From the NCBI GenBank assembly GCA_963848135.1, contig CAWKCK010000017.1:806001-870000 (forward strand): a stretch of 64,000 nucleotides of DNA. Direction: 5' to 3'. The DNA comes from an uncultured delta proteobacterium. GTDB lineage: Bacteria > Desulfobacterota > Desulfobacteria > Desulfobacterales > SG8-13. This document shows, piece by piece, positions 2 through 28,414 of the stretch (position 1 is its first letter; each line of letters starts with the position of its first letter). The position numbers and the translations under genes were made by a program. The notes below the pieces were generated by a model. The model was not told the DNA's origin and ran no database searches. It saw nothing but the letters and a program-made list of their open reading frames with translations.

Positions 2-3000
2 GTGGGCATTACGCCCAACCAGGCGATCTTCGCCAACGCCCGGGTGGAAATTTTCGAAGCCGACAACGATGCCAGCGGCCACGGCGAAGGACAGATTTTT
101 CTGGGTTTTCTGATGACAGACGCCAGCGGTAATTTCAGCGGCACTATCGATGTGAGCGGCAAAGGTCTCGCCGCCGGTGAAAATATCACCGGGACTGCCA
201 CCGACGGGAGCAACAATACCTCCGAATTTGGAACACACCGGGTTGTCGTCACGCCGGCAGTAACCATCGAGGATGTCACTGAGATCGAAGGCACCGGCTT
301 ACTGTTTACCGTTACACTGGACGAAGCAGTGTCGGGCGGCTTCGATGTGACCGTCGGCTTCTCCGATGTAACGGCCACCGGCGGTGCGGCGCCGCTGGCG
401 ACTCCGGAAGATTATGCCAATGATGCCGCAACCTTAAATTTTGCCGGCACGGCGGGTGAAACCAAAACATTTACAGTTGCAACACTCGATGATGCCCTCG
501 TAGAGGGAAATGAGGCTTTCACGGTCACCCTGTCGGCTTCCAACGCAGATGTGGATGACAGCGATACGGCTTTAGGTACGATCACCGAGAACGATACCGA
601 TTTGGTGGTCACGAAAACCGTGGACAATGGAACCCCGGATGAGGGTGACACGGTCACCTTCACCGTGACCATCACCAACAGCGGTTCGATCCAGGTGACC
701 AATGTCAGCATCGATGACGCCATTCCAGCAGGCTTAACGGCCGGAACCATCACCCCCAGCCAGGGCAGCTACACCGCACCCACATGGACCATCGGAACAA
801 TCGACAGTGGATCGAGTGCCACCTTAACAATTCAGGCCACGGTCGATGCCGGTACCGCCGGATCTACTATCACCAACACGGTCACCAATGTGACCCTGGA
901 TCAGGTGGATAGCGACACCACTGCCGATGATCTGAGTGAGTCGGTCACCGTCGGCAACGCAACGGATCTGGTGATTGGTAAAACGGTCGATAACGGCACC
1001 CCAGACGAAGGCGACACGGTCACCTTCACCGTCACGGTCACAAACAATGGCCCGGCCCAGGCTTCAAACGTCAGTATCGATGATGTGGTACCCGTCGGTT
1101 TGACAGCCGGCACCATCACCCCCAGCCAGGGCAGTTACGCCGCACCGACATGGACCATCGGAACCATCGACAGTGGATCGAGTGCCACGTTATCGATTCA
1201 AGCTAGCGTCGATGCCGGTACCGCCGGATCCACCATCACCAACACGGTCACGAACGTTACCTTGGACCAGACCGACAGCAACACCACCCCCGATGATCCC
1301 GATGAATCGATCACGGTCGGTAACGCCACGGATCTGGTTATTGGTAAAACCGTCGATAATGGAACCCCCGATGAAGGCGACACGGTCACCTTCACCGTCA
1401 CAGTGACTAACAACGGGCCGGCCCAGGCTTCAAACGTCAGTATCGATGATGTGGTGCCAGCGGGTTTAACGGCCGGGGCGATCACTCCCAGCCAGGGCAG
1501 CTACACCGCACCGACATGGACCATCGGCACTATCAACAGCGGATCGAACGCCACGTTAACGATTCAGGCCACGGTTGATGCCGGTACTGCCGGATCCACC
1601 ATCACCAATACGGTCACTAACGTCAGCCTGGATCAAGTGGATGACAATACCACCGCCGATGACCTCAGTGAGTCTGTCACAGTCGGTAACTCAACTGACC
1701 TGGTCGTTGCTAAGCTCGTTGATAATGGAACCCCCGATGAGGGCGACACAGTCACCTTCACCGTTACGGTCACTAACAACGGACCGGCTCAGGCCTCAAA
1801 CGTCAGCATCGATGATGTTCTGCCCGCTGGTCTGACCATCGGTTCAGTAACACCGAGCACCGGAACATGGACCGATCCCACATGGACGATAGGAACACTC
1901 AATAGTGGCGTCAGTGCAACGTTAACCATCGTAGCTGATGTTGATGCCGGAACATCGGGTCAGACCATCACTAATACGGTCACCAACGTGACCCTGGATC
2001 AAGTCGACAGTAACACTACCGCCGATGATCCCAGTGAGTCGATCACTGTCGGTAACGCCACGGAACTGGTGATTGGTAAGACGGTTGACAACTCAACCCC
2101 GAACGAAGGCGACACCGTCACCTTCACGGTCACGGTGACTAACAGCGGTCCGGCCCAAGCCACTAATGTCAGTATCGACGATGTGATTCCGACCGGCCTT
2201 ACTGCCGGTACGATCACTCCCAGCCAGGGCAGCTACACCGCACCCACGTGGACGGTTGGAACCCTCGCAAACGGTTCAAGTGCCACATTAACGATTCAAG
2301 CCAGCGTCAACGCTGGAACCGCTGGATCGACCATCACTAACACGGTCACAAACGTGACCCTGGATCAGGTCGACAGCAACACCACTGCCGATGATCCCAG
2401 TGAGTCGATCACCGTCGGCAACAGCACCGATCTGGTGATTGGTAAGACGGTCGACAATGGAACACCCGATGAAGGCGACACGGTTACCTTTACCGTCACG
2501 GTTGCAAACAGCGGGCCGGCGCAGGCCTCAAATGTCAGTATCGATGATGTGATTCCGGCGGGTCTCGCAATTGGGTCAGTGACACCGAGTATCGGATCCT
2601 ACACTGCACCGACTTGGACTGTCGGTACCCTGGCTGATGGAGCCAATGCAACACTGACCATAACGGCTGGCGTCGATGCCGGCACCTCAGGCAGCACGAT
2701 CACTAACACGGTCACAAACGTCACCTTGGATCAGGTCGACAGTAATACCACCGCTGATGATCCCAGTGAGTCGATCACTGTCGGTAACGCAACGGATCTG
2801 GTGATTGGTAAAACGGTCGATAACGCCACCCCCGATGAAGGCGATACCGTCACCTTCACTGTAACGGTCACAAACAGCGGTCCGGCTCAGGCCACTAACC
2901 TCAGCGTCGATGACGCGCTGCCCGCCGGTTTAACGATTGGTTCAGTGACACCAAGCACCGGAACATGGACCGCTCCCACATGGACCATCGGCACCATCAA

Positions 3001-6000
3001 TAGTGGCGCCAGTGCAACGTTAACCATCGTAGCTGATGTCGATGCCGGTACCGCAGGCCAAACCATCACAAACACGGTGACTAACGTTAACTTAGACCAG
3101 ACCGACAGCAACACCACCCTCGATGACCCAAGTGAGTCTGTCACGGTCGACAACAGCACCGATTTGGTAATCACAAAGATTGTCGATAATGGAACACCCG
3201 ATGAAGGCGACACGGTTACCTTCACCGTCACGGTGACTAACAGCGGTCCAGCCCAGGCCACCAACGTCAGCATCGACGACACTCTGCCCGCCGGTTTGAC
3301 GATTGGTTCAGCGACACCGAGTATCGGATCCTACACTGCACCGACTTGGACCATAGGCACCCTGGCTGATGGAGCCAATGCAACACTGACCATAACGGCT
3401 GGCGCCGATGCCGGCACCGCCGGTTCCACCATCACCAACACGGTGACGAACGTTACTTTAGATCAGGTCGACAGTAACACCACTGCCGATGATCCCAGTG
3501 AGTCTGTCACCGTCGGTAACAGTACCGATCTTGCCATCACAAAAATAGTTGATAATGGGACTCCGAATGAGGGTGACACGGTCACCTTCACCGTCACCGT
3601 TACAAACAACGGACCGGCCCAGGCAACAAACATCAGCATCGATGATGTGCTGCCAGCCGGTTTGACGATTGGTTCAGTAACACCGAGTATCGGATCCTAC
3701 ACTGCACCGACTTGGACCATAGGCACACTCAATAATGGCGCCAGTGCCACACTGACCATCACTGCTGACGTTGATGCCGGAACATCGGGTCAGACCATTA
3801 CCAACACGGTCACCAATGTGACCCTGGATCAGGTGGATGACAACACTACCCTTGATGATCTCAGTGAGTCGGTAACCGTCGGTAACAGTACTGATCTTGT
3901 CATCACGAAGATCGTTGATAATGGAATACCCGATGAGGGCGACACGGTCACCTTCACTGTTACGGTCACAAACAACGGTCCGGCTCAGGCAACAGATGTC
4001 AGCATCGATGATGTGGTGCCAGCGGGTTTAACGGCCGGTACGATCACCCCCAGCCAGGGCAGCTACACCGCACCCACATGGACGGTCGGAACCATCGATA
4101 ACGGTTCAAGTGCCACGTTAACGATTCAAGCGACAGTCAATACTGGTGAAGCTGGACAGACTATAACTAACACGGTGACTAACGTTACCTTAGACCAAAT
4201 CGACAGCAACACCACCGCCGATGACCCCAGTGAGTCGATCACGGTGGGTAACAGTACCGATCTGGTGATTGGTAAGACGGTCGACAATGGAACCCCGGAT
4301 GAGGGCGACACCGTTACATTCACCGTCACGGTGACTAACAGCGGACCGGCCCAGGCAACAAACCTCAGCATCGATGACGCCCTGCCCGCTGGTTTGACGG
4401 CCGGAACCATTACCCCCAGCCAGGGCAGCTACACCGCACCGACATGGACTGTCGGAACCATCGACAGTGGGTCGAGTGCCACCTTATCGATTCAGAGCTA
4501 GCGTCGATGCTGGTACCGCTGGATCGACCATTACAAATACGGTCACCAACGTGACCTTGGATCAGGTGGATGACAACACTACTGCTGATGATCTCAGCGA
4601 GTCGGTCACCGTCGGCAACAGTACTGATCTTGCCATTACAAAGATCGTTGATAACGGAACACCCGATGAGGGCGACACGGTCACCTTCACCGTCACGGTG
4701 ACTAACAGCGGTCCGGCCCAGGCTTCAAACGTAAGTATCGATGATGCCCTGCCCGCGGGCTTGACGGCCGGAACGATTACCCCCAGCCAGGGTAGCTACA
4801 CGGCTCCCACATGGACCATCGGAACCATCGACAGCGGTTCAAACGCCACCCTAACCATCCAGGTCACGGTCGATGCCGGTACTGCCGGATCCACCATCAC
4901 CAACACGGTCACCAACGTGACCTTAGATCAGGTGGATGACGACACTACCCTTGATGATTTGAGTGAGTCTGTCACTGTCGGCAACAGTACCGATCTTGCC
5001 ATTACAAAGATCGTTGATAACGGAACACCCGATGAAGGCGACACGGTCACCTTCACCGTCACGGTCACTAATAACGGTCCCGCTCAAGCTTCAAACGTCA
5101 GTATCGATGACACCCTGCCCGCCGGCCTTACTGCTGGAACCATCACTCCCAGCCAAGGTAGCTACACGGCACCCACATGGACCATCGGAACCATCGACAG
5201 TGGTGCAAACGCTACCTTAACAATTCAGGCCACGGTCGATGCCGGTACTGCCGGATCCACAATCACCAACACGGTCACCAATGTGACCTTGGATCAGGTG
5301 GATGACGACACTACCCCTGATGATTTGAGTGAGTCTGTCACCGTCGGTAACGCTACGGATCTTGCCATCACAAAGATCGTTGATAATGGAACACCCGATG
5401 AAGGCGACACGGTCACCTTCACCGTCACGGTCACAAATAACGGTCCCGCTCAAGCTTCAAACGTCAGTATCGATGATGCGGTGCCCGCGGGCCTGACCAT
5501 TGGTTCAATAACACCGAGTATAGGAACATGGACCGATCCGACATGGACGATAGGCACCCTCAATAGTGGCGCCAGTGCAACGTTAACCATCGTAGCTGAT
5601 GTTGATGCCGGCACCTCAGGCAGCACCATCACCAACACGGTCACCAACGTGACCCTGGATCAGACAGACAGTAACACTACCGCCGATGATCCCAGCGAAT
5701 CGATCACCGTCGGTAACGCGACGGATCTGGTTATTGGTAAAACGGTCGACAACTCAACACCTGATGAAGGCGACACCGTCACCTTCACCGTCACGGTGGC
5801 TAACAGCGGACCAGCTCAGGCCAATAACGTCAGCATAGACGATGTGCTGCCGGCCGGTCTCACAATCGGTTCAGCGACACCGAGTATCGGATCCTACACT
5901 GCACCGACTTGGACCATAGGCACCCTCAATAATGGCGCCAGTGCCACTCTGACCATCGTAGCTGATGTTGATGCCGGCACCGCCGGTTCCACCATCACTA

Positions 6001-9000
6001 ACACGGTCACGAACGTTACCTTGGACCAGACCGACAGCAACACCACCCCCGATGATCCCGATGAATCGATCACGGTCGGTAACGCCACGGATCTGGTTAT
6101 TGGTAAAACCGTCGATAATGGAACCCCCGATGAGGGTGACACGGTCACCTTCACCGTCACCGTTACAAACAGCGGGCCGGCCCAGGCCACTAACGTCAGC
6201 ATCGATGATGTGCTGCCGGCCGGTCTCACAATCGGTTCAGCGACACCGAGCACCGGAACATGGACCGATCCGACTTGGACAGTGGGCACCCTCAATAGTG
6301 GCGCCAGTGCAACGTTAACCATCGTCGCTGATGTCGATGCCGGCACCTCTGGTAGCACCATCACTAACACGGTCACGAACGTTACCTTGGATCAAACCGA
6401 CAGTAACACCACCGCCGATGATCCCAGTGAATCGATCACGGTCGGTAACGCCACGGATCTGGTTATTGGTAAAACGGTCGACAATCCAACACCCGATGAA
6501 GGCGACACGGTCACCTTTACTGTTGCGGTCACAAATAACGGGCCAGCTCAGGCCACTAACGTTAGTATCGATGATGTGATTCCGGCAGGTTTGACGGCCG
6601 GTACGACCACTCCCAGCCAGGGCAGTTACACCGCACCCACATGGACCATCGGAACCATCGACAGTGGCGCAAACGCTACATTAACAATTCAGGTCACGAT
6701 CGATGCCGGTACCGCCGGTTCCACTATTACCAACACGGTGACCAGCGTTACTTTAGATCAGGTGGATGACAACACCACCGCCGATGATCCCAGCGAATCG
6801 ATCACGGTGGGTAACAGCACCGATCTGGTGATTGGTAAAACGGTCGACAATGGAACCCCCGACGAAGGCGACACGGTTACCTTCACCGTCACCGTTACAA
6901 ACAGCGGGCCGGCGCAGGCAACAAACCTCAGCATCGATGACGCCCTGCCCGCGGGCCTGACCATCGGTTCAGTGACTCCGAGCACCGGAACATGGGCCGA
7001 TCCCACTTGGTCCATCGGCACCCTGGCTGACGGCGCCAGTGCCACTCTTACCATCCTGGCCTCCGTGGACGCAGGCACCGCTGGATCGACCATTACTAAC
7101 ACGGTCACTAACGTCACCCTGGATCAAACCGACAGCAACACCACCCTCGATGATCCCAGTGAATCGATCACGGTGGGTAACGCCACGGATCTGGTTATTG
7201 GTAAAACCGTCGATAATGGAACCCCGAATGAAGGCGACACCGTTACCTTTACCGTCACGGTCACAAACAGCGGACCAGCTCAGGCAACAAACCTAAGCAT
7301 CGATGACGCCCTGCCGGCTGGTCTCACAATCGGTTCGGTAACACCGAGCACCGGCTCCTACACTGCACCAACATGGACAATAGGCACTCTCAATAATGGC
7401 GTCAGTGCAACGTTAACCATCGTAGCTGATGTTGATGCCGGCACCGCCGGTTCCACCATCACTAACACGGTCACGAACGTCACCCTGGACCAAACTGACA
7501 GCAACGCTACCGCTGATGATCCCAGTGAGTCGGTCACCGTCGGTAACAGTACCGATCTGGTTATTGGTAAAACGGTTGATAACGGAACCCCAGATGAGGG
7601 TGACACCGTTACATTCACCGTCACGGTTACAAACAATGGTCCGGCTCAGGCTTCAAACGTCAGTATCGATGATGTGGTACCGGCGGGTTTAACGGCCGGA
7701 ACAATTACCCCCAGCCAGGGCAGTTACACCGCACCCACGTGGACGGTTGGAACCCTCGCTAACGGTTCAAGTGCTACATTAACGATTCAAGCGACAGTCA
7801 ATACTGGTGAAGCTGGCCAGACTATAACTAACACGGTGACTAACGTTACCTTAGACCAAACCGACAACAACACCACCGCCGATGATCCTAGCGAATCGAT
7901 CACCGTCGGTAACGCGACGGATCTGGTTATTGGTAAAACGGTCGACAATGGAACCCCCGACGAAGGCGACACGGTTACCTTCACCGTCACGGTGACTAAC
8001 AGCGGACCAGCCCAGGCCACGAACGTCAGCATCGACGACGCTCTGCCCGCCGGTTTGACGGCCGGTACGATCACCCCCAGCCAGGGTAGTTGGACCGCAC
8101 CGACATGGACCACCGGAACCATTGACAGTGGCGCAAACGCTACCTTAACCATCCAAGCCACGGTCGATGCCGGCACCGCCGGATCCACCATCACAAACAC
8201 GATCACCAATGTCACCCTGGACCAGGTGGATGACAACACAACCGCCGATGATCTCAGTGAGCCGGTTACCGTCGGTAACAGCACCGATTTAGTAATCACA
8301 AAGATCGTTGATAATGGAACACCTGACGAAGGCGACACGGTTACCTTCACCGTCACGGTGACTAACAGCGGACCAGCCCAGGCCACGAACGTCAGTATCG
8401 AAGATGTCCTGCCGGCCGGTTTGACGATTGGTTCAGTGACACCGAGCACCGGAACATGGACTGCACCCACGTGGACCATCGGAACCCTGGCTGACGAAGC
8501 CAGTGCAACACTGACCATAACGGCTGACGTCGATGCCGGCACCGCCGGTTCCACCATCACCAACACGGTGACGAACGTTACTTTAGACCAGGTCGACAGT
8601 AACACCACTGCCGATGATCCCAGTGAGTCTGTCACCGTCGGTAACAGTACCGATCTTGCCATCACAAAGATAGTTGAAAATGGGACTCCGAATGAGGGTG
8701 ACACGGTCACCTTCACCGTCACCGTTACAAACAACGGACCGGCCCAGGCAACAAACATCAGCATCGATGATGTGCTGCCAGCCGGTTTGACGATTGGTTC
8801 AGTAACACCGAGTATCGGATCCTACACTGCACCGACTTGGACCATAGGCACACTCAATAATGGCGCCAGTGCCACACTGACCATCACTGCTGACGTTGAT
8901 GCCGGAACATCGGGTCAGACCATTACCAACACGGTTAATAACGTTACCTTAGATCAGACCGACAGTAACACCACCGCTGATGATCCCAGTGAATCGATCA

Positions 9001-18000: not shown

Positions 18001-20723
18001 AGGACGGCACGTTTTCTTCATCGGTGACCCTGCCGCCCGGTGAAAGTGAACTCCTGATCCAGGCCATCGATCCAAAGGGCCGTATCGGAGAAATCAGTCG
18101 GCCGATCGAGTTTAAAGATACGCAACTGTTTTTCCTTGCCTTCGGCGATGGTAAAATCGGGTGGCTCAAGAGTAAAGGCTACCTCGAGGGCACCGACAAG
18201 GAAGACGGATTTTACACCGAAGGACGGATCGCCTTCTACCTGAAGGGCGTCATAAAGGGCAAGTACCTTATCACCGCAGCGATGGACACCGGCGTCGCTG
18301 AATTCGGCGACCTTTTCAAGGACCTGGATAATAAACAGAACCAACGATTGTTGACGAATTTGGATCCCGACAAGATTTACCCGGTTTACGGAGACACAAG
18401 TACCGTTGTTTACGATACCGATTCGAGGGGCAAGTTCTACCTGGCCCTGGACAGCGACGAATTCCATGCCCTGGTGGGGAACTATCAGATCAGTTTGTCC
18501 GATACCGAGCTGGCAAGATATCAGCGAACATTTTTCGGCGCAAACGTGGCCTATAAATCGCTTTCGGAAACCAAATACGGCCAGCCGAACACTAAGGCGA
18601 TGGTTTTCGGTGCCGAAGTACAGCAGCTGCATGTCAACGACCAGATCGAGGCCACCGGCGGTTCCCTTTACTACCTGAGCCATCGCGACATCATCGAGGG
18701 CAGCGAGCAGGTCAGCCTGGTGATCAGGGACAAGAACACCGGACTGGTGCTCTCGCGCACCCCTCAGCAGCAAAACGTGGACTACACCATAAAATACGAT
18801 ACAGGATATATACTCTTTCACCGGCCCATCACCAGCAAAGCCGCCGACGGCTCGATCATCAACCAGGATATCCTGCCCGGCAACCCGGTCGTCATCGAGG
18901 TGGAGTACGAAGCCACGGCCGATTCACTCGAAAAGAAGGCCTATGGCGGCCGCGTCCGGCAGCAGATCGGAGATCATGTGGCCGTGGGCGGTACCTACAT
19001 CAAAGACGATCTGGGGACGGAGTCCTACACACTTCAAGGGGTCGATACGGAAGTCCGCCTGGGTAAGAACACGCGTCTTATCGGCGAATATGCCCAAAGC
19101 GAGGGGACCGGGAACGAGGTGTTCCTCAGTGACGATGGCGGTCTGAATTTCATAGACACCACTCCCACCGGGGACCAAAACGGCGATGCCTATAAATTGG
19201 CTGTTGAAGTGGATATCGGTGAGTGGTTCGAGCGGCCGGACGACTATCTTGTCGGCGCTTATTACAAACGTCAGAATCCGGGTTTTTTCACCGCAGGCAA
19301 CCTCCTGCAAACCGGGACGGAGAACATCGGCATGAATCTGTCGTTCAAACTGAGCGAGGCCGATCTGCTGCGGGGCAAGCTCGAACGAACGGGAATCGAC
19401 GCTACGGAGACCTTTGACAGCACTTCGGAAACCATCGGAACCCTGCAGTATATCCACGACCACAGCTGGTGGGGCGTGACTCTCGAATATCAGAATCGAC
19501 AGCGCGACAACGAGCAAGTGACATCGGATGCCGGAGACAACAGTTATGCCGCCGCCGGACTGCGGGTGGACGCTACGGACGATTTGACGCTCAATCTCGA
19601 CTATCAGCAGACCATAACCGGGCCATCCAACAACCAGGCCAGACTGGGTGCCCGCTACCAGATTCATCCGAAAGTGGCTCTCGAAGCAGCCGGCACCGTC
19701 GGTAGTGAAGGGAGCTCAGCCCTCGGTGGCGCCGTCGTGAAACTGGGCGACCAGGAACTTTACATCAACCAACGCCTGGCGGATCACCGGCCCGGCCGGA
19801 GCACAGCGACAGTGATCGGTGCGCGAGCATTGGTCGACTCATCGACAAAATTGTATACGGAATACCAATGGGAGAAAAATAACGGCGACGATCGTAATGT
19901 ATCGTTAATCGGAGCCGAGCGCCAGTGGGAATTAACCAGAGGACTCAAGCTGCTACTCTCCGGAGAGTATGGATCAACCAATGCGGATGCCGGCGACAAC
20001 GATCGCTACGCGATCACGGGAGGCGTTGCCTATAATAATCCGGCCGGCATCTTGGCGTCTTCACAGCAGCAATTCCGGGGAGAGGACGGCCGTGAAAATA
20101 CCATCCAGTTCCTGTCGAACAACAACCTGGAATTAAAACTCAACCCGGACTTCACGCTGCTCGGAAAGTTGCGATACAGTAAAACGCGCAACACCGAAAA
20201 CGATGATACAACGGCCGGATTTAAAGAATACAGTCTCGGGCTGGCATACCGCCCGGTGGCCTTCGATCGGCTGAATGCGCTGGCGAAGTACACCCTGCTT
20301 TCCGATATCGGCCCCTTGCGTCCAGGTGAACTGGTGCTCTCGGATACCCAGTCCCATGTCGCTTCCATCGAGTGGATTTTCGATATCACCCGCAGCCTGC
20401 AGTGGGTCGAAAAATTGGCTTATAAAATGCAGGCAGAGACGGTCGGCAGCCTGCCTCAGCAGGACACCCAAACACTCCTGGCAATCACCCGCTTGAATTG
20501 GAACTTCTGGCGCAAGTTCGGCCTGGGACTGGAATATCGCATCCTCTCCCAAAAACAACCCGAGAATACTAACCATGGCTGGTTGACAGAACTGATGTGG
20601 GAGCCGGTGGATCACTTCCGGATCGGTGCCGGCTACAATTTTACCGATTTTTCGGACGACGAGTTTGCGGACAACGACCACTCCTACGGGGGACCGTTCT
20701 TCCGCTTCCAAGTGCTTTACTAA
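2..20723 (+). CDS. Giant multi-domain surface adhesin-like protein (5'-partial, frameshifted at ~4495): beta-helix tail, Calx-beta, 34x DUF11, 7x Calx-beta, Big_1, DUF11, SdrD-B-like, FlgD-like Ig, OmpA-C, 2x Ig, putative C-terminal OM beta-barrel
   Basis: ORFs 2..4501 and 4467..20723 carry the same 122-aa repeat in register across the junction. Removing one G at 4495 joins them into 6,906 codons. OmpA-C motifs VVIEGHTDSSG, YNLELSKKRA, WYGESRP, NRRIEI lie at ~17000-17330. The C-terminus FFRFQVLY resembles a BAM beta-signal. Confidence 0.9.
596..13031 (+). repeat. Tandem array of 34 x 366-bp (122-aa) DUF11/TIGR01451-type Ig-like repeats
   Basis: Unit starts (TDL codons) at 596, 962 ... 12675; (12675-596-1)/366 = 33 intervals. 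Consensus TDLVIGKTVDNGTPDEGDTVTFTVTVTNxGPAQAxNVSIDDxxPAGL...WTIGT...ATLTI...DDPSESITVGN matches the DUF11 pattern. Confidence 0.93.
13040..15485 (+). repeat. Seven Calx-beta-like domains, with an eighth copy at ~260-595
   Basis: Repeated motifs I(N/D)DVxxxEG, FTV(T/S)LD, DGTAxAGSDY, ETFxVxL, G(L/T)GTIT(N/D)DD. Boundaries are approximate. Confidence 0.8.
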
Positions 20724-20741: not shown

Positions 20742-22070
20742 ATGAAAGAAAACCAGCCCAGCCCGAGACCAAAATTTTCCAAGCGCTTGAAATCCCTTGG
20801 ATCGCTTCTGGTGGAGTCGGTCATGACGATTCTTCTGGTGCTGAGCTTCTTCTCGATCTTTCTATATCTGCTCAATGCGTTATTTCCTACCGGGGTCAGC
20901 CTGAAAACCTTGATGGACCAGAGAGACGCACAACGGTACTCTGCAGGACCGACACCAGGCAGCCAAAAATCCAGAGGTGGTGATGTGGTGGCCTCATCCT
21001 GGCAAGAGCTGGCCGCCATCGTGACCCAAACGCATAACAGTGTAAAAAGTAAGCGGGCAGAAGCCATCGTTTGGATGTCCGCCGACGTTGGAAAACACCT
21101 TTTTGACCGGGACGCTGTCCAAACTCTCGACCAGGCGGCAGCCGAAATTACATTTGATAAACATTCGATTCTCAACATGGGGGAAAACTCTCTTCTGATT
21201 ATCAAGAAACAAATCCAGGATCCTCTCTTCCGGGAAAAGAGGTCTTTTATGGTTTTGGTGGATGGAGACCTGAGGGGCAGAATCAATGGATCGAACCCCA
21301 ATTCGGTCTTTATTGAAATTGGAACGCCAACAGCCACCATCAACACCAAAGGTGGTGCTGCCACGAAAAAAGAATTGGACTTCAAGATATCCGTCAACCC
21401 CGACAAATCATCTACCATAGCGGTGTACAGCGGTTCTGCCGAAGTGGAGGCGAATGGCAAAAAGGTGATTGTGGCCGCAAATCAAGCCACGGTCGTGGCC
21501 ATGGGCCAGGCACCGTTAAAACCGCGGATGATTCCAAAGATTGTGACACTGAGCGTGCCGTCCAAAGGCCATGGCTATTCCTACCGGGATCTGCCGCCGC
21601 GCATCCGATTCCACTGGGAAACTCAGGCGGCGGCCACCGGTTATCACTTCCTGCTGGCACGGGATCCTGATTTTCGGGAAATCGTAACCGAAGACACCTT
21701 CGAAGACAACGCGTTCAGACACGGCAACCTGGTTGAAGGCATGTACTACTGGAAAGTGAGCGCACGTAGCGCGTCGATCGAGGGCGCTTTCAGTGAGGTC
21801 CGCCAGTTCAGGGTCCTGCGGGATAGTGTTCCGCCGCAACTGGACGTTCGTTTGCCTCCGAGTACCATCTACGGTGGTAAATATGTAGTGGAAGGAAAAA
21901 CCGAACCCAATGCCACAGTCTACATTGGTGGCCAGCGGGTTGATATCAGTTCAACAGGTACGTTTACTCATCCAGTCAATCTTTTGCCCGGAATGAACGT
22001 CATTGTCGTCGAAGCATTCGATACGGTTAACAATGTTGCGTACTGTTCCAAAAGGGTGGTGAGCAAATAG
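20742..22070 (+). CDS. Single-pass membrane FecR-domain protein with FN3-like and C-terminal Ig-like domains
   Basis: N-terminal TM segment (ILLVLSFFSIFLYLLNALF); FecR-like DAVQT...AEITF...NMGENS, IGTPTATI and AVYSGSAEV; FN3-like FHW...YHFLLARD...YYWKV. ATG at 20742, 18 nt after the adhesin stop. Confidence 0.8.
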   Translation: MKENQPSPRPKFSKRLKSLGSLLVESVMTILLVLSFFSIFLYLLNALFPTGVSLKTLMDQRDAQRYSAGPTPGSQKSRGGDVVASSWQELAAIVTQTHNSVKSKRAEAIVWMSADVGKHLFDRDAVQTLDQAAAEITFDKHSILNMGENSLLIIKKQIQDPLFREKRSFMVLVDGDLRGRINGSNPNSVFIEIGTPTATINTKGGAATKKELDFKISVNPDKSSTIAVYSGSAEVEANGKKVIVAANQATVVAMGQAPLKPRMIPKIVTLSVPSKGHGYSYRDLPPRIRFHWETQAAATGYHFLLARDPDFREIVTEDTFEDNAFRHGNLVEGMYYWKVSARSASIEGAFSEVRQFRVLRDSVPPQLDVRLPPSTIYGGKYVVEGKTEPNATVYIGGQRVDISSTGTFTHPVNLLPGMNVIVVEAFDTVNNVAYCSKRVVSK

Positions 22071-22090: not shown

Positions 22091-23983
22091 ATGGGAAAAT
22101 TTTTCAAGTTTTCGATACGGTTTAAAATTCTGATCGTGCTGCTACTGGTAGTAACAGCGGCGGTCAGTGCCATAACACTGACCATGGCAAAACTGTTTCA
22201 TACGGACAAGTCGATTTATGTGCACGACCTGACCGCGGAAATGGCCATCCGAACGGCAGCCGAAACCCGTGCGCTTCTGACTGGTTATCAGCGTAATCTG
22301 CATGTATTTACCCAATTTCTGTACGACCCGGAGACGCAACCCGATCACAAACGAAAAATGGTTAAACAACTATTTGCGGATTTCAACGATTTCGTCGCGA
22401 TCATCCTCTGGGTTGATGGTAAAGAGTTAACCAGTGTTTACGATGCCCGCACACTGGAAACAACGGGTCTCACCAAGGCGACCTTGTTGAACTTTTTCGA
22501 AACCCAGCCGATCCCCATGAACGAGGTGGAGCGAGGTGAAGTATACATTGCCAATGCTACCGTCAAAGAGAACTTGCCGGCCATCGTAATGGCCACTACT
22601 TATGCCCCGCCCGAGTCTAACGCCGAAACCTGTGTGGTGTCTGCCATCATCCGTCAGGATGGCCTTCAGCAACTGGCTGAACGCTCGAAAGCCTTTACAA
22701 CATTTATCACAGACGCCAAAGGGGATCCGCTGGCCCACTCTGACTTGGCCCATGTCGTCAATCGCAGAAAAATCGAATGGATTACCACCATAAAGGGCCT
22801 TGGCAACGATCGCCTGCACGGCTCCACCCATGATTATGTCGCCAACGGTCAGGAGATGGTCGGTGGGTTGGCACACACCGATATCAGGGACCTCCTGGCC
22901 GGCGTTGAAATCCCAAAAACCACCGCCTACCTTACCGCGCGGGAGCTGTTGAAAAACCTGATATTGGTTTCCCTGATCCTCCTGTTGGTCGCAGCTGTCT
23001 TTAGCCTTCTCAGCTCGCGTTTCATCACGCGACCGGTAGAACATCTGGTGGAAGCAACCAAAGTCCTGGCTTCAGGACGATTTGACATCAAGGTGAGTCC
23101 CAGATCGCGGGATGAAATCGGCGATTTGGCCAATTCCTTCAATCACATGGCCTCGGAGTTGGAAGTCCGTGAAAAGGAGCTGCAAGACGCCCAAGTCGCC
23201 CTTGTTCAATCGGAAAAGATGGCCGCTTTCGGGCAACTGGGAGCCGGGATTGCGCACGAAGTAAAAAATCCACTGGCCGGTATTCTCGGGTTAACCCAAC
23301 TTTGCCTGCTCGAAGCCGAAAGAGAGACCACTCAGTTCGAAAATTTATCCTTGATAGAGAAGGAAACCAAACGCTGCAAGACCATAATCGATAATCTATT
23401 AAAATTCTCCCGGCAGGAAAAAGTGAGCTTCGATATGACCGACATCAATCAAGTGGCTGTGGATACCGTGGCCATAATCAGCCACCAGCTCGGCATCAAT
23501 CAGATTAAATTTTATCAAGATTTCGCAAAGGAACTCCCTCCGGTCTACGGCAATGCCAACCAGATCCAACAGGTGCTGCTTAACCTGATGATAAACAGCC
23601 AGCAGGCAATGGTGGGAAAACCGGGGGAGATAAAACTGGCAACGTCACTGATGAATGCGAAAACAGCAAAGATCCAGATCATCGATACAGGCCCCGGTAT
23701 ACCCAAAGAGGTGCAGTCTAAAATATTTGAACCCTTTTTCACAACCAAGCCAGCCGGACAAGGTACGGGATTAGGCTTGTCGGTGAGCTATGGTATTGTC
23801 AAGAGCCATAAAGGCGATATTTACGTTCAAAGTGAACCGGGGAAAGGAACCGTATTCACCATCCTTTTGCCGGTGGGAAAACCCACCCAGGAGTCGGTCA
23901 AGCCCGCAGATTCGGAAAATTACTCACCTGACACGCCTGTGGATAAGCGTCCACATGAAGGGAAAAATAATGCGCCCGGTTAA
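22091..23983 (+). CDS. Membrane sensor histidine kinase (2 TM, periplasmic Cache-like domain, HAMP, HisKA, HATPase)
   Basis: Two hydrophobic segments, HAMP DEIGDLANSFNHM, H-box AGIAHEVKNPL, NLMINS, DTGPGI, FEPFFTTK, GTGLGL. Confidence 0.93.
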   Translation: MGKFFKFSIRFKILIVLLLVVTAAVSAITLTMAKLFHTDKSIYVHDLTAEMAIRTAAETRALLTGYQRNLHVFTQFLYDPETQPDHKRKMVKQLFADFNDFVAIILWVDGKELTSVYDARTLETTGLTKATLLNFFETQPIPMNEVERGEVYIANATVKENLPAIVMATTYAPPESNAETCVVSAIIRQDGLQQLAERSKAFTTFITDAKGDPLAHSDLAHVVNRRKIEWITTIKGLGNDRLHGSTHDYVANGQEMVGGLAHTDIRDLLAGVEIPKTTAYLTARELLKNLILVSLILLLVAAVFSLLSSRFITRPVEHLVEATKVLASGRFDIKVSPRSRDEIGDLANSFNHMASELEVREKELQDAQVALVQSEKMAAFGQLGAGIAHEVKNPLAGILGLTQLCLLEAERETTQFENLSLIEKETKRCKTIIDNLLKFSRQEKVSFDMTDINQVAVDTVAIISHQLGINQIKFYQDFAKELPPVYGNANQIQQVLLNLMINSQQAMVGKPGEIKLATSLMNAKTAKIQIIDTGPGIPKEVQSKIFEPFFTTKPAGQGTGLGLSVSYGIVKSHKGDIYVQSEPGKGTVFTILLPVGKPTQESVKPADSENYSPDTPVDKRPHEGKNNAPG

Positions 23984-24938
23984 GGATAATCGTATCTTGG
24001 TTGTCGATGATGAAGAGATTATACTTGAGGTATTGTCAGGGGTGATTGCCCGGGCCGGCTACACTGTCACAACGGCCTCAAACGGTGAAGAAGCCTGGGA
24101 GATATTTTCTGACAAGCCCTTTGCGCTCGTAATAATGGATCTCGTAATGGAAGGTATATCAGGGATTGATTTGCTGCAAAAAATCAGACGGTGCCATCCC
24201 GAAACTCAGGTTATCATCATGACGGGTCATGCCTCGCTTGATTCGGCAACGGCAGCGCTTCGTGCCGGTGCCTTCGATTACCTCTCCAAGCCGTTTAGAG
24301 GCTTCGATAAAATCACCGCATCCGTCCGCCTGGCCATGAAAAAGTATGCGGATATTCATCAAAATCAGAGTGAAATTGAACGGCTAAAAAAAAGAATCGC
24401 ACAAGTCGAGAACGCCAATAATGTGTTGAAGAATACGTCGATTCGAGACGGGTTGACCGGACTATTCAATTACCGATATTTTCAGGAAGACCTGGCCTAC
24501 GAATTGCTCCGGTCAAATCGGTACAAACGAACTTTCTCGCTGCTTTTCATTAAGATAGCATCATTTCAGCGCTTCATTGAGACATATGGAAAAATAGAGG
24601 CGGACAAACTGCTCATTACCGTCGGCCATCAACTTAAGCTAAACCTCAGAAAGACGGACCTTTTGGCACGCTACAAGGACGAAATGTTTTTGGCCATTTT
24701 ACCCGAGACCTCAAAACCGAATTCAGAAAAATTGGCCGACGGCTTGTGTACACGCGTAGCGAACAATGTTCAGGAACAGAGGGGCACCCGTTCAACCTAT
24801 GATGTCACACTGCGTATCGGGGTATCGACATATCCGGTGGATGGTACAAACGGCTCATCACTCTTAAAATATGCTCAGGAAGCAACCTCCCGGACAACCG
24901 AAGGGGCGTTGAACAGAGTCAACATAAAAATGCCATGA
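23970..24938 (+). CDS. Response regulator REC + degenerate GGDEF domain
   Basis: REC motifs ILVVDDE, MDLVM, YLSKP. GGDEF fold start RDGLTGLFNYRYF. Active-site motif reads RY-KDEMF, with RKTD I-site five residues upstream. Start moved to ATG 23970. Confidence 0.87.
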   Translation: MRPVKDNRILVVDDEEIILEVLSGVIARAGYTVTTASNGEEAWEIFSDKPFALVIMDLVMEGISGIDLLQKIRRCHPETQVIIMTGHASLDSATAALRAGAFDYLSKPFRGFDKITASVRLAMKKYADIHQNQSEIERLKKRIAQVENANNVLKNTSIRDGLTGLFNYRYFQEDLAYELLRSNRYKRTFSLLFIKIASFQRFIETYGKIEADKLLITVGHQLKLNLRKTDLLARYKDEMFLAILPETSKPNSEKLADGLCTRVANNVQEQRGTRSTYDVTLRIGVSTYPVDGTNGSSLLKYAQEATSRTTEGALNRVNIKMP

Positions 24939-24981
24939 AAAAGGATAGCCGAAGATAGATTGCCTTGAAAGGAGTGGTTAA

Positions 24982-26352
24982 ATGTCACAAGAAAAGATGG
25001 TAAGGATACTGGTCGTAGATGATGAGGAAAGTCTATTGGCTGTCCTGTCCCAAGTTCTAAAAAAAGACGGCTTCGATGTCACCACCGTTAAAAGCGCCGA
25101 AAAAGCATTGGAAATCTTCCAACAAGACCCATTCCCTCTTATCATTACCGATATCGTCATGGGCGGAATGACGGGTATCGATCTTCTCGAAAGCGTTAAA
25201 AAGTCGCATCCCGAAACCCAAGTGATCGTTATGACCAGTTATGCGTCGCTTGACACAGCCATAATGGCTCTTCGGTCGGGCGCCTATGACTACCTATTCA
25301 AACCCTTCGAAGATCTAACCGTCATCTCAGCCGCCGCAGCCCGGGCAACCGATAGCATCCGGCTCTCCGCTGAGAACAAATATCTGCTTGAAAAACTCAA
25401 ACAGATGAACAGCGAATTGGAAACCCGGATCAAGGAGAGAACCAATGAGCTGTTTGAGATAAACAAAAGTCTGAAAAGGGAAATCGAAACCCGCAAACTG
25501 ATAGAGATAGATCTGACCGAGGCCAAGGAAAACGCAGTCGCCGCCAACCTGGCAAAAAGCGAATTCTTGGCCAACATGACGCACGAGCTGCGAACCCCTC
25601 TGAACCATATTATCGGATTCACCGAGATTGTCGCCGAAAAGAAATTCGGAGAGTTGAACCCGGAGCAGGAAAAATATCTTCAGAACGTTTTGCAAAGTAG
25701 TCACCACCTGCTAACGCTCATAACCGACATCCTGGATTATTCCAAATATGAAACCGGAAACCTAAAATTGGATCGCAGTGAAATCCAGCTCACCCCCTTT
25801 TTACAGGAATGCGTCAATATATTTCGAGACGAAGCAACGAAGAAGAACATCCAGATTACTTTAGACCCGAAGGACGCACCGGAAATTGCATCCGCGGATC
25901 AACGCAAATTCAAGCAGATTATGTATAATCTTCTCTCCAATGCCCTAAAATTCACCCCCCAAAACGGGAAGGTTTATGTGGAGGCTAAAGAAGTCAAAAT
26001 TCGAAGCCGCCCCGGTCTTCGGCACAACGACTCTAAATCGACCCAGATAATCGAAAAAGTCGGTCAGGTCGCTAATGATGCCCCGGAAAACGCCCCCAGG
26101 GCTATTGAGGTATCTGTTTCTGATACCGGAATCGGACTGAAGCCGGATGACCTGACGCGTGTTTTCAACCGGTTCGAACAAATCGATGGTTCCAAGGGCA
26201 GAAGATACAGTGGCGCCGGTTTGGGTCTGGCCCTCACAAAGGCCTTCGTTGAGTTGCACGGGGGAGCAATAAAAGCAGAGAGCGCCGGTGATGGAAAAGG
26301 TTGTGCCTTCACATTTATCATTCCTTTACTAACGCAATCACCAAACTCTTGA
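24982..26352 (+). CDS. Cytoplasmic hybrid REC-histidine kinase
   Basis: N-terminal REC (ILVVDDE, TDIVM, FKP), FLANMTHELRTPL, NLLSNALKFT, DTGIG, GAGLGL. Confidence 0.93.
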   Translation: MSQEKMVRILVVDDEESLLAVLSQVLKKDGFDVTTVKSAEKALEIFQQDPFPLIITDIVMGGMTGIDLLESVKKSHPETQVIVMTSYASLDTAIMALRSGAYDYLFKPFEDLTVISAAAARATDSIRLSAENKYLLEKLKQMNSELETRIKERTNELFEINKSLKREIETRKLIEIDLTEAKENAVAANLAKSEFLANMTHELRTPLNHIIGFTEIVAEKKFGELNPEQEKYLQNVLQSSHHLLTLITDILDYSKYETGNLKLDRSEIQLTPFLQECVNIFRDEATKKNIQITLDPKDAPEIASADQRKFKQIMYNLLSNALKFTPQNGKVYVEAKEVKIRSRPGLRHNDSKSTQIIEKVGQVANDAPENAPRAIEVSVSDTGIGLKPDDLTRVFNRFEQIDGSKGRRYSGAGLGLALTKAFVELHGGAIKAESAGDGKGCAFTFIIPLLTQSPNS

Positions 26353-26362
26353 GGACGCAACA

Positions 26363-26743
26363 ATGAAAAAAACGACAATATTGGTGATCGAAGATAATGA
26401 ATTCAATATGATCCTGGTGCGCGATCTTCTGCAAATTGAAAACTTCACGGTTGTTGAAGCGTATGATGCGGAAGCCGGCATCCGGAAAGCTCGCGAGACA
26501 AAGCCGGACCTCATATTGATGGATATTCAACTGCCGGGAATGGACGGATTGACGGCAACCCGGATCATTCAGAAAGATCCGGTTCTAAAAGAGATTCCTG
26601 TCGTGGCACTAACAGCTTATGCTATGGAAAAAGACAAAAAAGAAGCAATCGCAGCCGGATGTGTCGGCTTTATTGCCAAGCCGATCGATACCAGAAGTTT
26701 TGTCGATAGCGTATCTAAGTTCCTCGTCGATCTCTCGAATTGA
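26363..26743 (+). CDS. Single-domain response regulator (DivK-like)
   Basis: ILVIEDNEFN, PDLILMDIQLPGMDG, IPVVALTAYAM, AGCVGFIAKPID. Confidence 0.9.
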   Translation: MKKTTILVIEDNEFNMILVRDLLQIENFTVVEAYDAEAGIRKARETKPDLILMDIQLPGMDGLTATRIIQKDPVLKEIPVVALTAYAMEKDKKEAIAAGCVGFIAKPIDTRSFVDSVSKFLVDLSN

Positions 26744-26767
26744 TAACGCCAACCGGAGAACGGAAAA

Positions 26768-28414
26768 ATGGACAACAAAAAGAAGATTCTCATTGTTGAT
26801 GACGAGCCTCTGAATATCGACTTGTTGGAAGCAATGCTCGCTCGTGAAGACTACGAAATCATGACGGCCAGCGACGGAGCAGAAGCTCTTGCAAAGACAC
26901 AGTCAACGCCACCTGATCTTATCTTGCTCGACATTATGATGCCCGTTATGGACGGATTTGAGGTGGCCAAAAAGTTGAAAAGTGATTCGTTAACAGCCCA
27001 CATTCCTATCATTCTGGTCACTGCCCTGGATGATTTAAGTGACAGAGTTAAAGGATTGGAGGCCGGCGCCGATGACTTTCTGACAAAACCCGTTGAAAAA
27101 TCGGAACTGAAGGCCCGGGTGAATAACCTGCTAAAGGTCAAAGCCTACCATGATCATTTGCGCAACTACCAGATCAAACTCGAGGAAGAAGTTTCCCTCA
27201 GAACGCGGGATCTGGAAAAGGAACTACACCGGCGGAAGGAAACAGAAGCCCAATTGATTCGGGCCCAGAAGATGGAGGCCATTGGCACCCTTGCCGGCGG
27301 TATCGCTCATGATTTCAACAATATCCTATCCGCTATCTTGGGGTATTCAGAGATGGCTCTACTTCTCGCCACAACGGATGCGACGCTTTCCGATTATATC
27401 CGGCAGATACACACTGCCGGTGAACGCGCCAGTGATCTTGTTCAGCAGATACTTACATTCAGCCGTGAAACCGATGATGACCTCAAGCCGGCTGAAATCA
27501 GTGTGATCATAAAAGAGGCGCTCAAACTTCTCGGTGCGACCTTGCCGTCAACAATTACGACCAAACATAACATCGTCACAACGTCACCGGTTCTGGCCAA
27601 CCCCACCCAAATTCATCAACTCCTCATGAATTTGTGCACCAATGCCGCCCATGCCATGGAAGACAATGGCGGGGTTCTGGCTGTGACACTCACCGACGTT
27701 GAATTGAATGCTGAATCACTGGCGGGCCATCCGGAGATGACAGCCGGCAACTATGTCAAGCTGAGCGTCAATGATACCGGAAAAGGCATGCCTCCCGATG
27801 TGTTAGAGCGCATCTATGACCCCTTCTTCACAACCAAACCTGCGGGCAAAGGAACCGGGCTGGGCTTGTCCACAGTCCATGGTATCGTAAACAACCACTT
27901 CGGCGCTATTGCTGTATCGAGCAAACCCAATGCGGGAACGACCTTTGATATATATTTGCCGATTGTCGATCGAGAGGTTGCCCCGCAAATTTCGGAGAAC
28001 GAATCGACAGTTAACGGTACGGAAAGCATTCTTTTTGTCGATGATGATAAGGCCATTGCAGGCATGAGCAAAATAATGCTTGAAAATCTTGGCTACCATG
28101 TCAATTCAAAGACAAGCAGCATCGATGCGCTCGTCGATTTTAAAAGACAGCCCGAAAAATACGACCTCGTGATAACGGACCTGACAATGCCTCAAATGAC
28201 CGGTTTGGAATTGGCGGGTGAGATATTAAATGTTCGTCCCGATACACCGATAATCCTCTGTACCGGCCTCAGTACACAACTGAAATCCGGTGACAGAGAA
28301 CTCAAGGGTATCCAGGCCGTTTTGGCCAAGCCCATTCTCAGCCGCACAATGTCCGGAACCATCCGCAGCGTAATGAAGAGAAACGTTTCTGCGGACTGCG
28401 ACATGATCATGTAA
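26768..28414 (+). CDS. Hybrid REC-histidine kinase-REC (CckA-like kinase core)
   Basis: PleD-like first REC (PDLILLDIMMP, GADDFLTKP), QKMEAIGTLAGGIAHDFNNIL, GTGLGL, C-terminal REC (ILFVDDD, ITDLTMP). Confidence 0.92.
   Translation: MDNKKKILIVDDEPLNIDLLEAMLAREDYEIMTASDGAEALAKTQSTPPDLILLDIMMPVMDGFEVAKKLKSDSLTAHIPIILVTALDDLSDRVKGLEAGADDFLTKPVEKSELKARVNNLLKVKAYHDHLRNYQIKLEEEVSLRTRDLEKELHRRKETEAQLIRAQKMEAIGTLAGGIAHDFNNILSAILGYSEMALLLATTDATLSDYIRQIHTAGERASDLVQQILTFSRETDDDLKPAEISVIIKEALKLLGATLPSTITTKHNIVTTSPVLANPTQIHQLLMNLCTNAAHAMEDNGGVLAVTLTDVELNAESLAGHPEMTAGNYVKLSVNDTGKGMPPDVLERIYDPFFTTKPAGKGTGLGLSTVHGIVNNHFGAIAVSSKPNAGTTFDIYLPIVDREVAPQISENESTVNGTESILFVDDDKAIAGMSKIMLENLGYHVNSKTSSIDALVDFKRQPEKYDLVITDLTMPQMTGLELAGEILNVRPDTPIILCTGLSTQLKSGDRELKGIQAVLAKPILSRTMSGTIRSVMKRNVSADCDMIM

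Follow-up and report, generated by a model that had tools for sequence, protein, structure and literature searches.

To our knowledge, the sensing of attachment by bacteria is known for few systems, such as Wsp, NlpE/Cpx, and pili. The Wsp surface-sensing pathway leads to an inner-membrane kinase, and its output, WspR, joins a receiver (REC) domain to a GGDEF domain. In the YfiB-YfiR-YfiN (TpbB) system of Pseudomonas and E. coli, an OmpA-like peptidoglycan-binding protein of the outer membrane and a periplasmic middle protein act with an inner-membrane HAMP protein that controls cyclic di-GMP (c-di-GMP); YfiB is a small lipoprotein, and YfiR lacks the FecR fold. FecR-type sigma regulators are represented by PupR, for which the available sections of the published account describe an anti-sigma domain of ~80 residues (1-82), a transmembrane helix, and two periplasmic subdomains, CJM (110-238) and STN (250-324), each of them needed for transducer binding (PMC7186176). 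The locus considered here lies in a stretch of 64,000 nucleotides (the window) from an uncultured delta proteobacterium of the Desulfobacterales lineage SG8-13, namely positions 806,001 to 870,000 of contig CAWKCK010000017.1 in assembly GCA_963848135.1 (G000:C17:806001-870000, where G-numbers denote genomes and L-numbers the loci compared). Positions 2..28414 of its plus strand hold a run of seven tightly packed same-strand genes, which begins with a giant surface-fibre gene ending in a predicted outer-membrane barrel and continues with genes for a FecR-like protein, a sensor histidine kinase, a REC-GGDEF response regulator, and three further phosphorelay proteins.

A prediction made from the DNA letters (the original prediction) proposed that the adhesin barrel takes the place of the TonB-dependent receptor of FecR systems, and a histidine-kinase relay that of the extracytoplasmic function (ECF) sigma factor. 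From the comparisons described below we hold, with somewhat more belief than doubt, that the locus is a member of a conserved, horizontally spread cassette whose FecR-like protein is a periplasmic co-sensor reporting the state of barrel and fibre to the kinase.

Conservation of the Locus

A scan with the barrel alignment over one genome per species, spanning many phyla, retained 80 loci, and in 21 of these a FecR-like open reading frame (ORF) lies directly downstream of the barrel gene. The 21 FecR-linked loci are labelled Desulfobacterales (Thermodesulfobacteriota), Nitrospirota, Gammaproteobacteria (including Tenderia and Steroidobacteraceae), and Acidobacteriota/Terriglobia. A lack of conserved adjacency among adhesin, FecR, and kinase genes in other genomes had been named in advance as a refuting result; the adjacency is present in these 21 loci, and in 19 of them the next gene encodes the same dCache-like/HAMP sensor, with REC-GGDEF usually coming after it. 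In 16 linked loci the gene that follows the FecR-like one has Pfam matches to HAMP and HisKA, and to HATPase_c as well save in L033 and L035, which are cut by contig ends. At L031 (Desulfobacterales; 3056-4651) the gene in this position fuses the same sensor and HAMP domain to an intact GGEEF domain and carries no kinase. A profile of the sensor (kinase residues 1-300) matched 23 ORFs, comprising the window kinase, those of 19 of the 21 linked loci, and those of three out of three further loci (L106-L108), with 20-68% identity to the window kinase. The two linked loci without a match are L094, where the contig ends in the FecR-like gene, and L046, where the FecR-like ORF is partial. This profile matched none of the 59 unlinked loci and, among the ORFs of the window's 6.0-Mb genome that reach 150 aa, no other; a second profile, made from 119 members of the FecR-like family and used to recognize the 21 linked loci, found nothing elsewhere in those ORFs but an Ig domain of the giant protein itself. 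The three families, barrel, FecR-like protein, and sensor, thus co-occur at one copy each. A REC-GGDEF gene comes next in L032, L036, L040, L060, L107, L108, and L109 and lies on the opposite strand in L041, in every case with a GGEEF or GGQEF motif.

These co-occurrence data strongly support a functional link of barrel protein, FecR-like protein, sensor kinase, and REC-GGEEF protein, which together form the conserved core. The seven-gene relay first envisaged is not supported as it stood: four genes are conserved, the last encoding an intact REC-GGEEF protein, and the REC-histidine kinase, the stand-alone REC, and the REC-histidine kinase-REC at its end were seen in this genus only.

The same association is found among close relatives, the barrel and FecR-like genes being adjacent in G006, G007, G009, G011, and G016, and in G088 as well; in G017 a contig end lies 80 nt from the start of the FecR-like gene, and both copies in G206 are likewise at contig ends, as expected beside a repeat gene that cannot be assembled. 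FecR-like orthologues are thus never found away from a barrel gene where context is present (G000, G006, G007, G009, G011, G016, and G088), the other three (one in G017 and two in G206) being those at contig ends. In a sample drawn evenly across the phylum, orthologues (E<=1e-30) occur in 3 of 401 genomes, that of the window included, so that within the phylum the cassette is rare and patchy and not a lineage trait. Rarity in the phylum, combined with presence in several phyla, fits horizontal spread as a unit. In L111 (G007:C18:9000-24000), from the same genus, the whole cassette is present with nearly every gene in two to four ORFs and two TGA stops within the FecR-like match, which reflects either a decaying locus or an error-rich assembly.

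A chance neighbourhood of unrelated genes is scarcely credible given the conserved order across four phyla, and is already contradicted by the distribution of linkage on the barrel tree. This tree contains 75 rows, the short-match loci L026, L031, L049, L080, L084, L099, and L104 having been left out. One half of it contains every one of the 20 FecR-linked rows; the other half has 27 assessable rows, not one of them linked. Within the clade of the window's barrel (Shimodaira-Hasegawa-like approximate likelihood-ratio test support 100), 14 rows are linked, five unlinked, and one undecidable. The linkage label requires 7 changes on the tree, a count inflated by the frame-shifted rows L032 and L094 on long branches, against a mean of 17 when labels are shuffled, and 0 of 500 shuffles gave a count as low. 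Unlinked barrel genes have unrelated neighbours, those checked in the unlinked branch being followed by housekeeping genes such as UvrA, FtsH, and transketolase.

The FecR-Like Protein

The FecR-like protein is encoded at 20742..22070 on the plus strand; translation probably starts from an ATG at 20742, the ORF itself opening with a TTG at 20730. A short N-terminal tail precedes a transmembrane helix, a FecR/CJM fold, and two fibronectin type III (FnIII)/immunoglobulin (Ig)-like domains. The Pfam FecR score, 22.8 bits, lies under the curated cut-off of 24; many relatives carry a precomputed PF04773 call, and the family comprises 247 matches, mostly of 415-450 aa. An AlphaFold2 model derived from 36 sequences has a predicted local distance difference test score (pLDDT) of 86.0 and consists of a helix (residues 16-51), a disordered linker (56-90), and an all-beta periplasmic part. 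The single transmembrane helix is modelled with pLDDT 75-91 over residues 21-50 and is conserved in the alignment. Structure comparison with VIA-align placed the PupR CCSSD first (6ovk_R; Z 15.2, root-mean-square deviation 2.5 Å over 129 residues, model residues 125-322), followed by the Parabacteroides anti-sigma factor BDI_1681 (4m0n; Z 13.8) and then by FnIII tandems (Z 11.2), with residues 267-446 covering the tandem FnIII/Ig-like domains. As a single-pass protein with one transmembrane helix and a FecR/PupR fold, the product therefore agrees with what had been claimed for it, save that the Pfam score of the FecR domain is under the cut-off.

Classical FecR-type signalling, in which the ECF sigma factor and TonB-dependent transducer would be encoded elsewhere, could draw on the FecR-fold domain and the single transmembrane helix, yet it is very improbable. 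No anti-sigma domain is present, since no more than ~30 residues precede the transmembrane helix in 36 of 36 aligned family members, and by this alone the classical scheme is already contradicted. No STN match was reported in the FecR-like protein, residues 267-446 being FnIII/Ig-like and Glucodextran_B, and the conserved neighbour is a kinase. A search of the locus and its flanks with Pfam models found neither an ECF sigma factor nor a TonB-dependent transducer within the operon. In the flanks, where 10 long ORFs over ~18 kb upstream of the giant gene and 24 ORFs over 35 kb downstream of the operon were checked, sigma70_r2/r4, Plug, and TonB_dep_Rec had no match. A sigma or receptor partner upstream of the adhesin had also been singled out as a refuting result, and none was found among those 10 ORFs.

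The protein thus lacks three of the five defining features of FecR-type sigma regulators, namely the anti-sigma domain, the STN subdomain, and a cognate ECF sigma factor and TonB transducer in the locus. Because the first two are missing, it cannot relay in the manner of classical FecR, and any signalling must use periplasmic or membrane contacts with the kinase. The proposal of an adhesin barrel in the receptor's place and a kinase relay in the sigma factor's accordingly survives in the adjacency of barrel, FecR-like, and kinase genes, seen in four phyla; a relay of the FecR type does not.

Two features of the protein bear on its possible partners. Across the 36 sequences P53 is invariant and E29, L48, F52, and G55 are conserved in at least 90%, so that both the transmembrane helix and a juxtamembrane F-P-x-G motif are maintained, a pattern that fits an intramembrane contact. 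The Ig domain before the barrel in the giant protein has a homologue in the last Ig domain of the FecR-like protein (32% identity, E 1e-5). Complex prediction for FecR-like residues 91-446 with the 365-aa region comprising OmpA and three Ig domains gave scores of 0.19 and 0.01 against a mark of 0.32, which count neither way.

The Sensor Kinase and Output Genes

The sensor histidine kinase (22091..23983, plus strand) comprises a first transmembrane helix, a periplasmic dCache-like domain of ~250 aa, a second transmembrane helix, and HAMP, HisKA, and HATPase_c domains, the last three scoring 53.8, 52.2, and 91.5 bits, all above the Pfam cut-offs. The dCache signals are weak but consistent, with dCache_1 reaching 38 bits in L036 (cut-off 45) and dCache sensors of known structure (3lic, Mlp24, Mlp37, and PctA) matching at E 0.011-0.68.

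The next gene (23970..24938, plus strand) encodes a REC-GGDEF response regulator with a degenerate active site, as had been recognized: YKDEM takes the place of GGEEF in the window protein and in that of G006, and GGEEF or GGQEF is kept in 11 other aligned proteins. Downstream of the kinase in G016, G088, and G206 there are one or two REC-GGDEF genes, or a single REC. Since intact GGEEF or GGQEF motifs prevail elsewhere and YKDEM is confined to this genus, the ancestral output would have been c-di-GMP synthesis. Three genes complete the run on the plus strand, encoding a REC-HisKA-HATPase hybrid kinase (24982..26352), a stand-alone REC (26363..26743), and, as the last gene, a REC-HisKA-HATPase-REC hybrid kinase (26768..28414). 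All three are additions of this genus, kept only in the same-genus G006 among the relatives examined and present in fragments in G007; the genus thus appears to have lost the catalytic site of the cyclase and to have gained a phosphorelay of three genes. Pfam confirmed the domain calls made earlier for the HAMP kinase, the REC-histidine kinase, and the REC-histidine kinase-REC. The label "DivK-like" given to the stand-alone REC lacks specific support, its match to the DVU0259_DivK model reaching 50 bits where 160 are required; no NCBIfam model reached its cut-off in the four response-regulator and kinase proteins, and neither "DivK-like" nor "PleD" is therefore specific.

The close packing of the seven genes was described correctly, with all ORFs on the plus strand and spacings, in order from the giant gene to the REC-histidine kinase-REC, of 18, 20, -14, 43, 10, and 24 nt. 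Scans of positions 20,000-29,500 were uninformative, yielding 9 promoter-like sites where 10.1 were expected and 20 terminator-like sites, mostly on the minus strand, where 11.6 were expected; no convincing plus-strand terminator was found between the seven genes in this interval.

The Giant Protein and Its C-Terminal Barrel

The giant gene occupies two overlapping ORFs of the plus strand. The upstream reading frame (2..4501 within the window) continues from G000:C17:~794578 and encodes DUF11/CLIPPER repeats, and the downstream frame (4467..20723; 5,418 aa) encodes a DUF11 array, Calx-beta, Big_1, SdrD_B, FlgD_ig, OmpA, and Ig-like domains, and the C-terminal barrel. The two overlap at 4467..4501 through a single frame shift inside a DUF11 repeat; the ORFs are taken to be one gene because the break falls within a repeat whose phase continues across it, and the shift near 4,497 may be either a real mutation or an assembly error in the tandem array. 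Upstream of the window the frame is open to G000:C17:794464 and encodes beta-helix/NosD, SdrD_B, and DUF11 domains, with a signal-peptide-like N-terminus ~11.4 kb before window base 1. The original prediction of a giant DUF11/Calx-beta gene is thus upheld in its domains and amended in its extent, the start lying ~11.4 kb before the window and the frame being broken once at ~4,490-4,500. The whole protein would measure ~10,700 aa, with a beta-helix head, ~60 DUF11 units, and Calx-beta domains fused to the core.

Within the window Pfam identified DUF11, Calx-beta, Big_1/Invasin_D3, SdrD_B, FlgD_ig, OmpA, and a Glucodextran_B-type Ig domain. The stalk is encoded by a tandem array of 33.9 copies of a 366-nt unit with 77% matches (614..13031), and in two pieces of 1,500 aa DUF11 scored 960 bits (11 stretches, in the upstream frame) and 1,091 bits (12 stretches). 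Tandem DUF11 domains in a secreted protein, the mark of DUF11/CLIPPER adhesins, are therefore found here, at 960 and 1,091 bits and behind a signal-peptide-like N-terminus. The best-matched Calx-beta stretches lie at 14097..15056, more copies being present upstream from ~13,100, and a Big_1/Invasin_D3 Ig-like domain at 15504..15794 marks the start of a core of ~1,900 aa that is a separate gene in other genomes. An OmpA-like domain at 17025..17312 (PF00691; 86 bits, cut-off 27.2, with positions 2-98 of the 98-position profile matched) is predicted to be of the peptidoglycan-binding type. Between this domain and the barrel there are three Ig-like domains (17313..18119), the last of them Glucodextran_B (17877-18086). 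All of these features lie on the plus strand.

The C-terminal module of 867 aa (18120..20720, plus strand) ends in an aromatic residue and is predicted to form a single very large beta-barrel of ~34 or more strands at residues ~255-865, a reading taken from the secondary-structure string and the structural matches. Its AlphaFold2 model, from 19 sequences, has a pLDDT of 79.4 and a predicted template modelling score of 0.68, and displays a near-unbroken antiparallel beta meander with ~34 strands between residues ~255 and 865 and further strands before. Neither Pfam nor NCBIfam gave a match to the last ~760 aa of the giant protein (E up to 0.01). A HMMER scan with the last 867 aa retrieved 3,086 representative clusters (50% identity) at E<=1e-3 and 1,116 at E<=1e-30, and in nearly all of 150 proteins among the matches listed, of ~300 to 5,136 aa, the match reaches the C-terminus. 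Neighbours in the ESM Atlas belong to clusters named "hypothetical" or "outer membrane protein" that lack a Pfam family. Foldseek returned generic large barrels alone (SprA, LptD, SlpA, TonB-dependent receptors, MtrB, and FimD; template modelling scores 0.13-0.26, with 0.15-0.28 given for the TonB-dependent receptors), from which no family can be assigned, and in VIA-align the FimD usher came first but loosely (Z 16.1, root-mean-square deviation 9.7 Å, 356 of 867 residues).

Known classes of barrel were considered in turn. A TonB-dependent transducer was rejected on the absence of Plug, TonB_dep_Rec, and STN matches and on the ~34+ predicted strands compared with 22, and a classical (type Va) autotransporter on the absence of a PF03797 match and a predicted barrel several times the size of the 12-strand domain. 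For an usher (PF00577) there is the loose FimD match and no Pfam Usher match; no chaperone gene was identified among the annotated neighbours of the barrel gene, in which no dedicated chaperone search was made. The module is best described as an undescribed family of outer-membrane barrels.

In canonical loci elsewhere, the barrel belongs to a protein of ~1,800-2,000 aa with the order Big_1/Invasin_D3, DUF11, SdrD_B, OmpA, Ig, and barrel. Directly upstream of the barrel gene in these loci (L030:5076-6504, L038:5694-7169, L040:5182-6545, L034:5015-7107, and others) are genes for two paralogous secreted proteins of ~200 aa without a Pfam match, and often there is a separate beta-helix/SdrD_B protein of 1,000-1,700 aa that has a domain in common with them (E 1e-14 to 1e-25). 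Eight queries against ORFs of 150 aa or more from the genome of the window found no such ~200-aa subunit. Together with the loose FimD match, the ~200-aa subunits hint at an assembled multi-subunit fibre.

These loci also bear on the proposal that the FecR-like protein is an assembly or anchoring factor, a structural periplasmic partner that inserts, plugs, or tethers the barrel and fibre, with the kinase only monitoring envelope stress caused by a very large export substrate. Small secreted subunits suggest assembly from many parts, the FecR-like gene is strictly adjacent to the barrel gene (6-18 nt spacing in the window), and its Ig-like domain could pair with the barrel protein's own. Nevertheless, most of the sampled barrel tree, from a family of 3,086 clusters, is without a FecR-like neighbour, so the barrel assembles without one, while the sensor domain and FecR-like gene at one copy each point to signalling over a general stress response. 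A role confined to assembly is accordingly judged improbable.

A Model for the Cassette

In the co-sensor reading favoured here, a DUF11/CLIPPER, Big_1, and SdrD_B fibre would be held in the outer membrane by the very large C-terminal barrel, with the OmpA-like domain and the three Ig-like domains before the barrel presumably periplasmic. The FecR-like protein would be a single-pass inner-membrane protein presenting its CJM fold and two Ig-like domains to the periplasm, where by touching the OmpA/Ig region it would report whether the barrel and fibre are assembled, loaded, or ligand-bound. The kinase would then phosphorylate the REC-GGEEF protein and c-di-GMP would rise; in the present genus the signal probably passes through the added REC-histidine kinase, REC, and REC-histidine kinase-REC instead of the lost cyclase site. 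In this we infer a physical relay across the envelope, together with every protein contact, the stimulus, and the direction in which the signal runs. The model is favoured because the FecR-like gene is never without a barrel gene where context exists, because its product and the barrel protein, in the periplasmic part of the latter, have an Ig domain in common, and because in solved systems the FecR fold contacts outer-membrane proteins.

Several points weigh against this reading. Five barrel genes inside the FecR-linked clade (L034, L037, L043, L044, and L058) have no module, and the barrel protein therefore does not need it; L044 and the linked L042 come from one Acidobacteriota assembly and have closely related barrel genes, that of L044 being followed by an opposite-strand gene for a 1,380-aa PKD-repeat protein. 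The topology assumed for the giant protein, with the stalk outside and the chain running through the barrel to periplasmic OmpA and Ig domains, requires an outer-membrane crossing between stalk and OmpA domain, and if the frame shift is real, the fibre may not form as one chain. The dCache fold usually binds small molecules, and with a dCache-like sensor the stimulus could be a soluble ligand unrelated to the fibre.

The last point leads to the main rival, a regulatory module with no link to the outer membrane. Here the kinase would sense a soluble periplasmic ligand, the FecR-like protein would be a ligand-binding or modulating accessory, and the module would tune the neighbouring fibre through c-di-GMP, the regulator travelling with its target. 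Besides the dCache-like sensor and the module-free barrel genes of the same clade, this explanation can call on the lack of a DNA-binding output in the cassette, which has GGDEF only, and on a FecR-domain protein beside CHASE2 adenylate cyclases in Campylobacterota, for which the available sections of the report mention no outer-membrane fibre (PMC9239204). Against it stand the constant company of FecR-like orthologues and barrel genes where context is available, the Ig homology between the FecR-like protein and the barrel protein's periplasmic part, and the FecR fold of solved systems, which in the accessible text is a module that contacts an outer-membrane protein (PMC7186176). A purely regulatory module is rated as unlikely, though by no means negligible.

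The co-sensor reading has a bolder form, which must be called distinctly doubtful. It would make the cassette a hitherto unrecognised type of trans-envelope mechanosensor. A covalently reinforced fibre, tied to peptidoglycan by the OmpA domain, would run through its own giant barrel, which may exceed 34 strands and rank among the largest predicted. A pull on it would move the periplasmic Ig domains, and the FecR-fold protein, no longer serving a sigma factor, would read this movement and switch the kinase and with it c-di-GMP, as a dedicated touch sensor common to Desulfobacterales, Nitrospirota, Gammaproteobacteria, and Acidobacteriota. In its canonical form the barrel might then also serve small secreted subunits as an usher-like platform.

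Related Loci and Flanking Genes

A second, distant copy of the barrel (28% identity) is present at G000:C2:386000-415000 (L024 and L025), carried by a protein of 1,703 aa whose N-terminus has an OmpA domain. The order there is a 2,548-aa DUF11 protein, the barrel protein, a 179-aa protein, three tetratricopeptide repeat (TPR) proteins, ExbB, two ExbD proteins, a 492-aa protein, and a second ExbB, and there is no FecR-like gene; this locus may represent a barrel system energised in the manner of Tol/TonB.

Upstream of the giant gene, the 10 long ORFs checked over ~18 kb encode, among others, an IS110 transposase, a sigma-54-dependent response regulator, three histidine kinases, a REC-GGDEF protein, a HEAT-repeat protein, and an EB_dh protein. 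The IS110-family transposase (DEDD_Tnp_IS110 and Transposase_20; L002:15878-17164, or G000:C17:791878-793164) lies ~1.4 kb upstream of the giant gene start, with the sigma-54 response regulator and the three histidine kinases beyond it. On the other side the same-strand run is ended by a MazG-like gene on the minus strand (28657-29019), the next after the operon. The 35 kb downstream contain the housekeeping genes for Ffh, TrmD, RNase HII, pyruvate:ferredoxin oxidoreductase, fumarase, AceK, malate synthase, and isocitrate lyase, along with one OmpA-family protein and one hybrid kinase. These last two form another envelope/signalling pair at 43187-47165, where a 319-aa OmpA-family protein (plus strand) adjoins a 982-aa HAMP-PAS-HATPase-REC hybrid kinase (minus strand). 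AceK (isocitrate dehydrogenase kinase/phosphatase), malate synthase, and isocitrate lyase form a glyoxylate-shunt cluster at 55839-60860 (plus strand), and at the window end (62967-63992, minus strand) lies the gene of a 341-aa protein in which an Lcl C-terminal domain scores 48.5 bits.

Comparison With Known Systems

No description of the cassette was found in the literature covered, from which subscription journals were largely absent. The evidence suggests that signals pass from the cell surface to c-di-GMP by a route so far uncharacterised, and if the proposed reading is true, the cassette adds a route that wires an adhesin's own anchor to a kinase and c-di-GMP. It occurs in environmentally important, mostly uncultured lineages of several phyla, and it exposes a large family of outer-membrane barrels, 3,086 clusters at 50% identity, for which there is no curated description and which anchor proteins ranging from ~600 to over 5,000 aa. 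In this genus, degeneration of the cyclase coincides with the three added phosphorelay genes, a rewiring of the output.

YfiBNR resembles the cassette in being three-tiered, and the L031 variant likewise has sensor, HAMP, and GGEEF in one chain; the cassette differs in its fibre-bearing giant barrel, its FecR fold, and, usually, a kinase with a separate REC-GGEEF protein. The NCBIfam names YfiB and DgcN/YfiN gave weak matches only. NlpE-OmpA-CpxA is alike in presumed purpose, the available part of the account describing an envelope sensor of surface contact that signals to an inner-membrane kinase (bioRxiv 10.1101/2022.10.18.512811), but its proteins and those of Wsp are unrelated to the present ones, and neither system has a fibre, a giant barrel, or a FecR-fold protein.

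The nearest counterparts of the fibre are the DUF11/CLIPPER fibrillar adhesins such as Acinetobacter silvestris B9T28_05395, which in the portion of the account available also has a tandem DUF11/CLIPPER stalk, presumed to be load-bearing, and an OmpA-like domain near the C-terminus (bioRxiv 10.1101/2025.04.25.650565). The present protein adds the barrel of ~870 aa and is ~five times longer, and the same portion mentions no barrel or signalling genes for the adhesin (bioRxiv 10.1101/2025.04.25.650565).

The FecA-FecR-FecI and PupB-PupR-PupI systems share with the cassette an outer-membrane barrel gene beside a gene for a single-pass inner-membrane protein of the CJM fold (Z 15.2 to PupR; PMC7186176), as well as a presumed signal path from the outer membrane across the periplasm. 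The cassette differs from them in having no ECF sigma factor in the locus and no N-terminal anti-sigma domain, in having two Ig-like domains in the place of STN, in a barrel without a match to Plug, TonB_dep_Rec, or STN whose predicted size far exceeds 22 strands, and in an output formed by a histidine kinase and a REC-GGDEF protein. The FecR fold here works outside sigma-factor control, of which the CHASE2 adenylate cyclase clusters of Campylobacterota, as described in the available sections, are the only published case found (PMC9239204). What both have in common is a FecR-domain protein coupled to an enzyme of nucleotide second messengers and not to a sigma factor; the Campylobacterota clusters, in those sections, combine a CHASE2 sensor and cyclic AMP with a TPR protein and a phosphodiesterase and have no fibre or barrel gene, whereas the present cassette pairs a dCache-like/HAMP sensor with c-di-GMP beneath a giant fibre-bearing barrel (PMC9239204).

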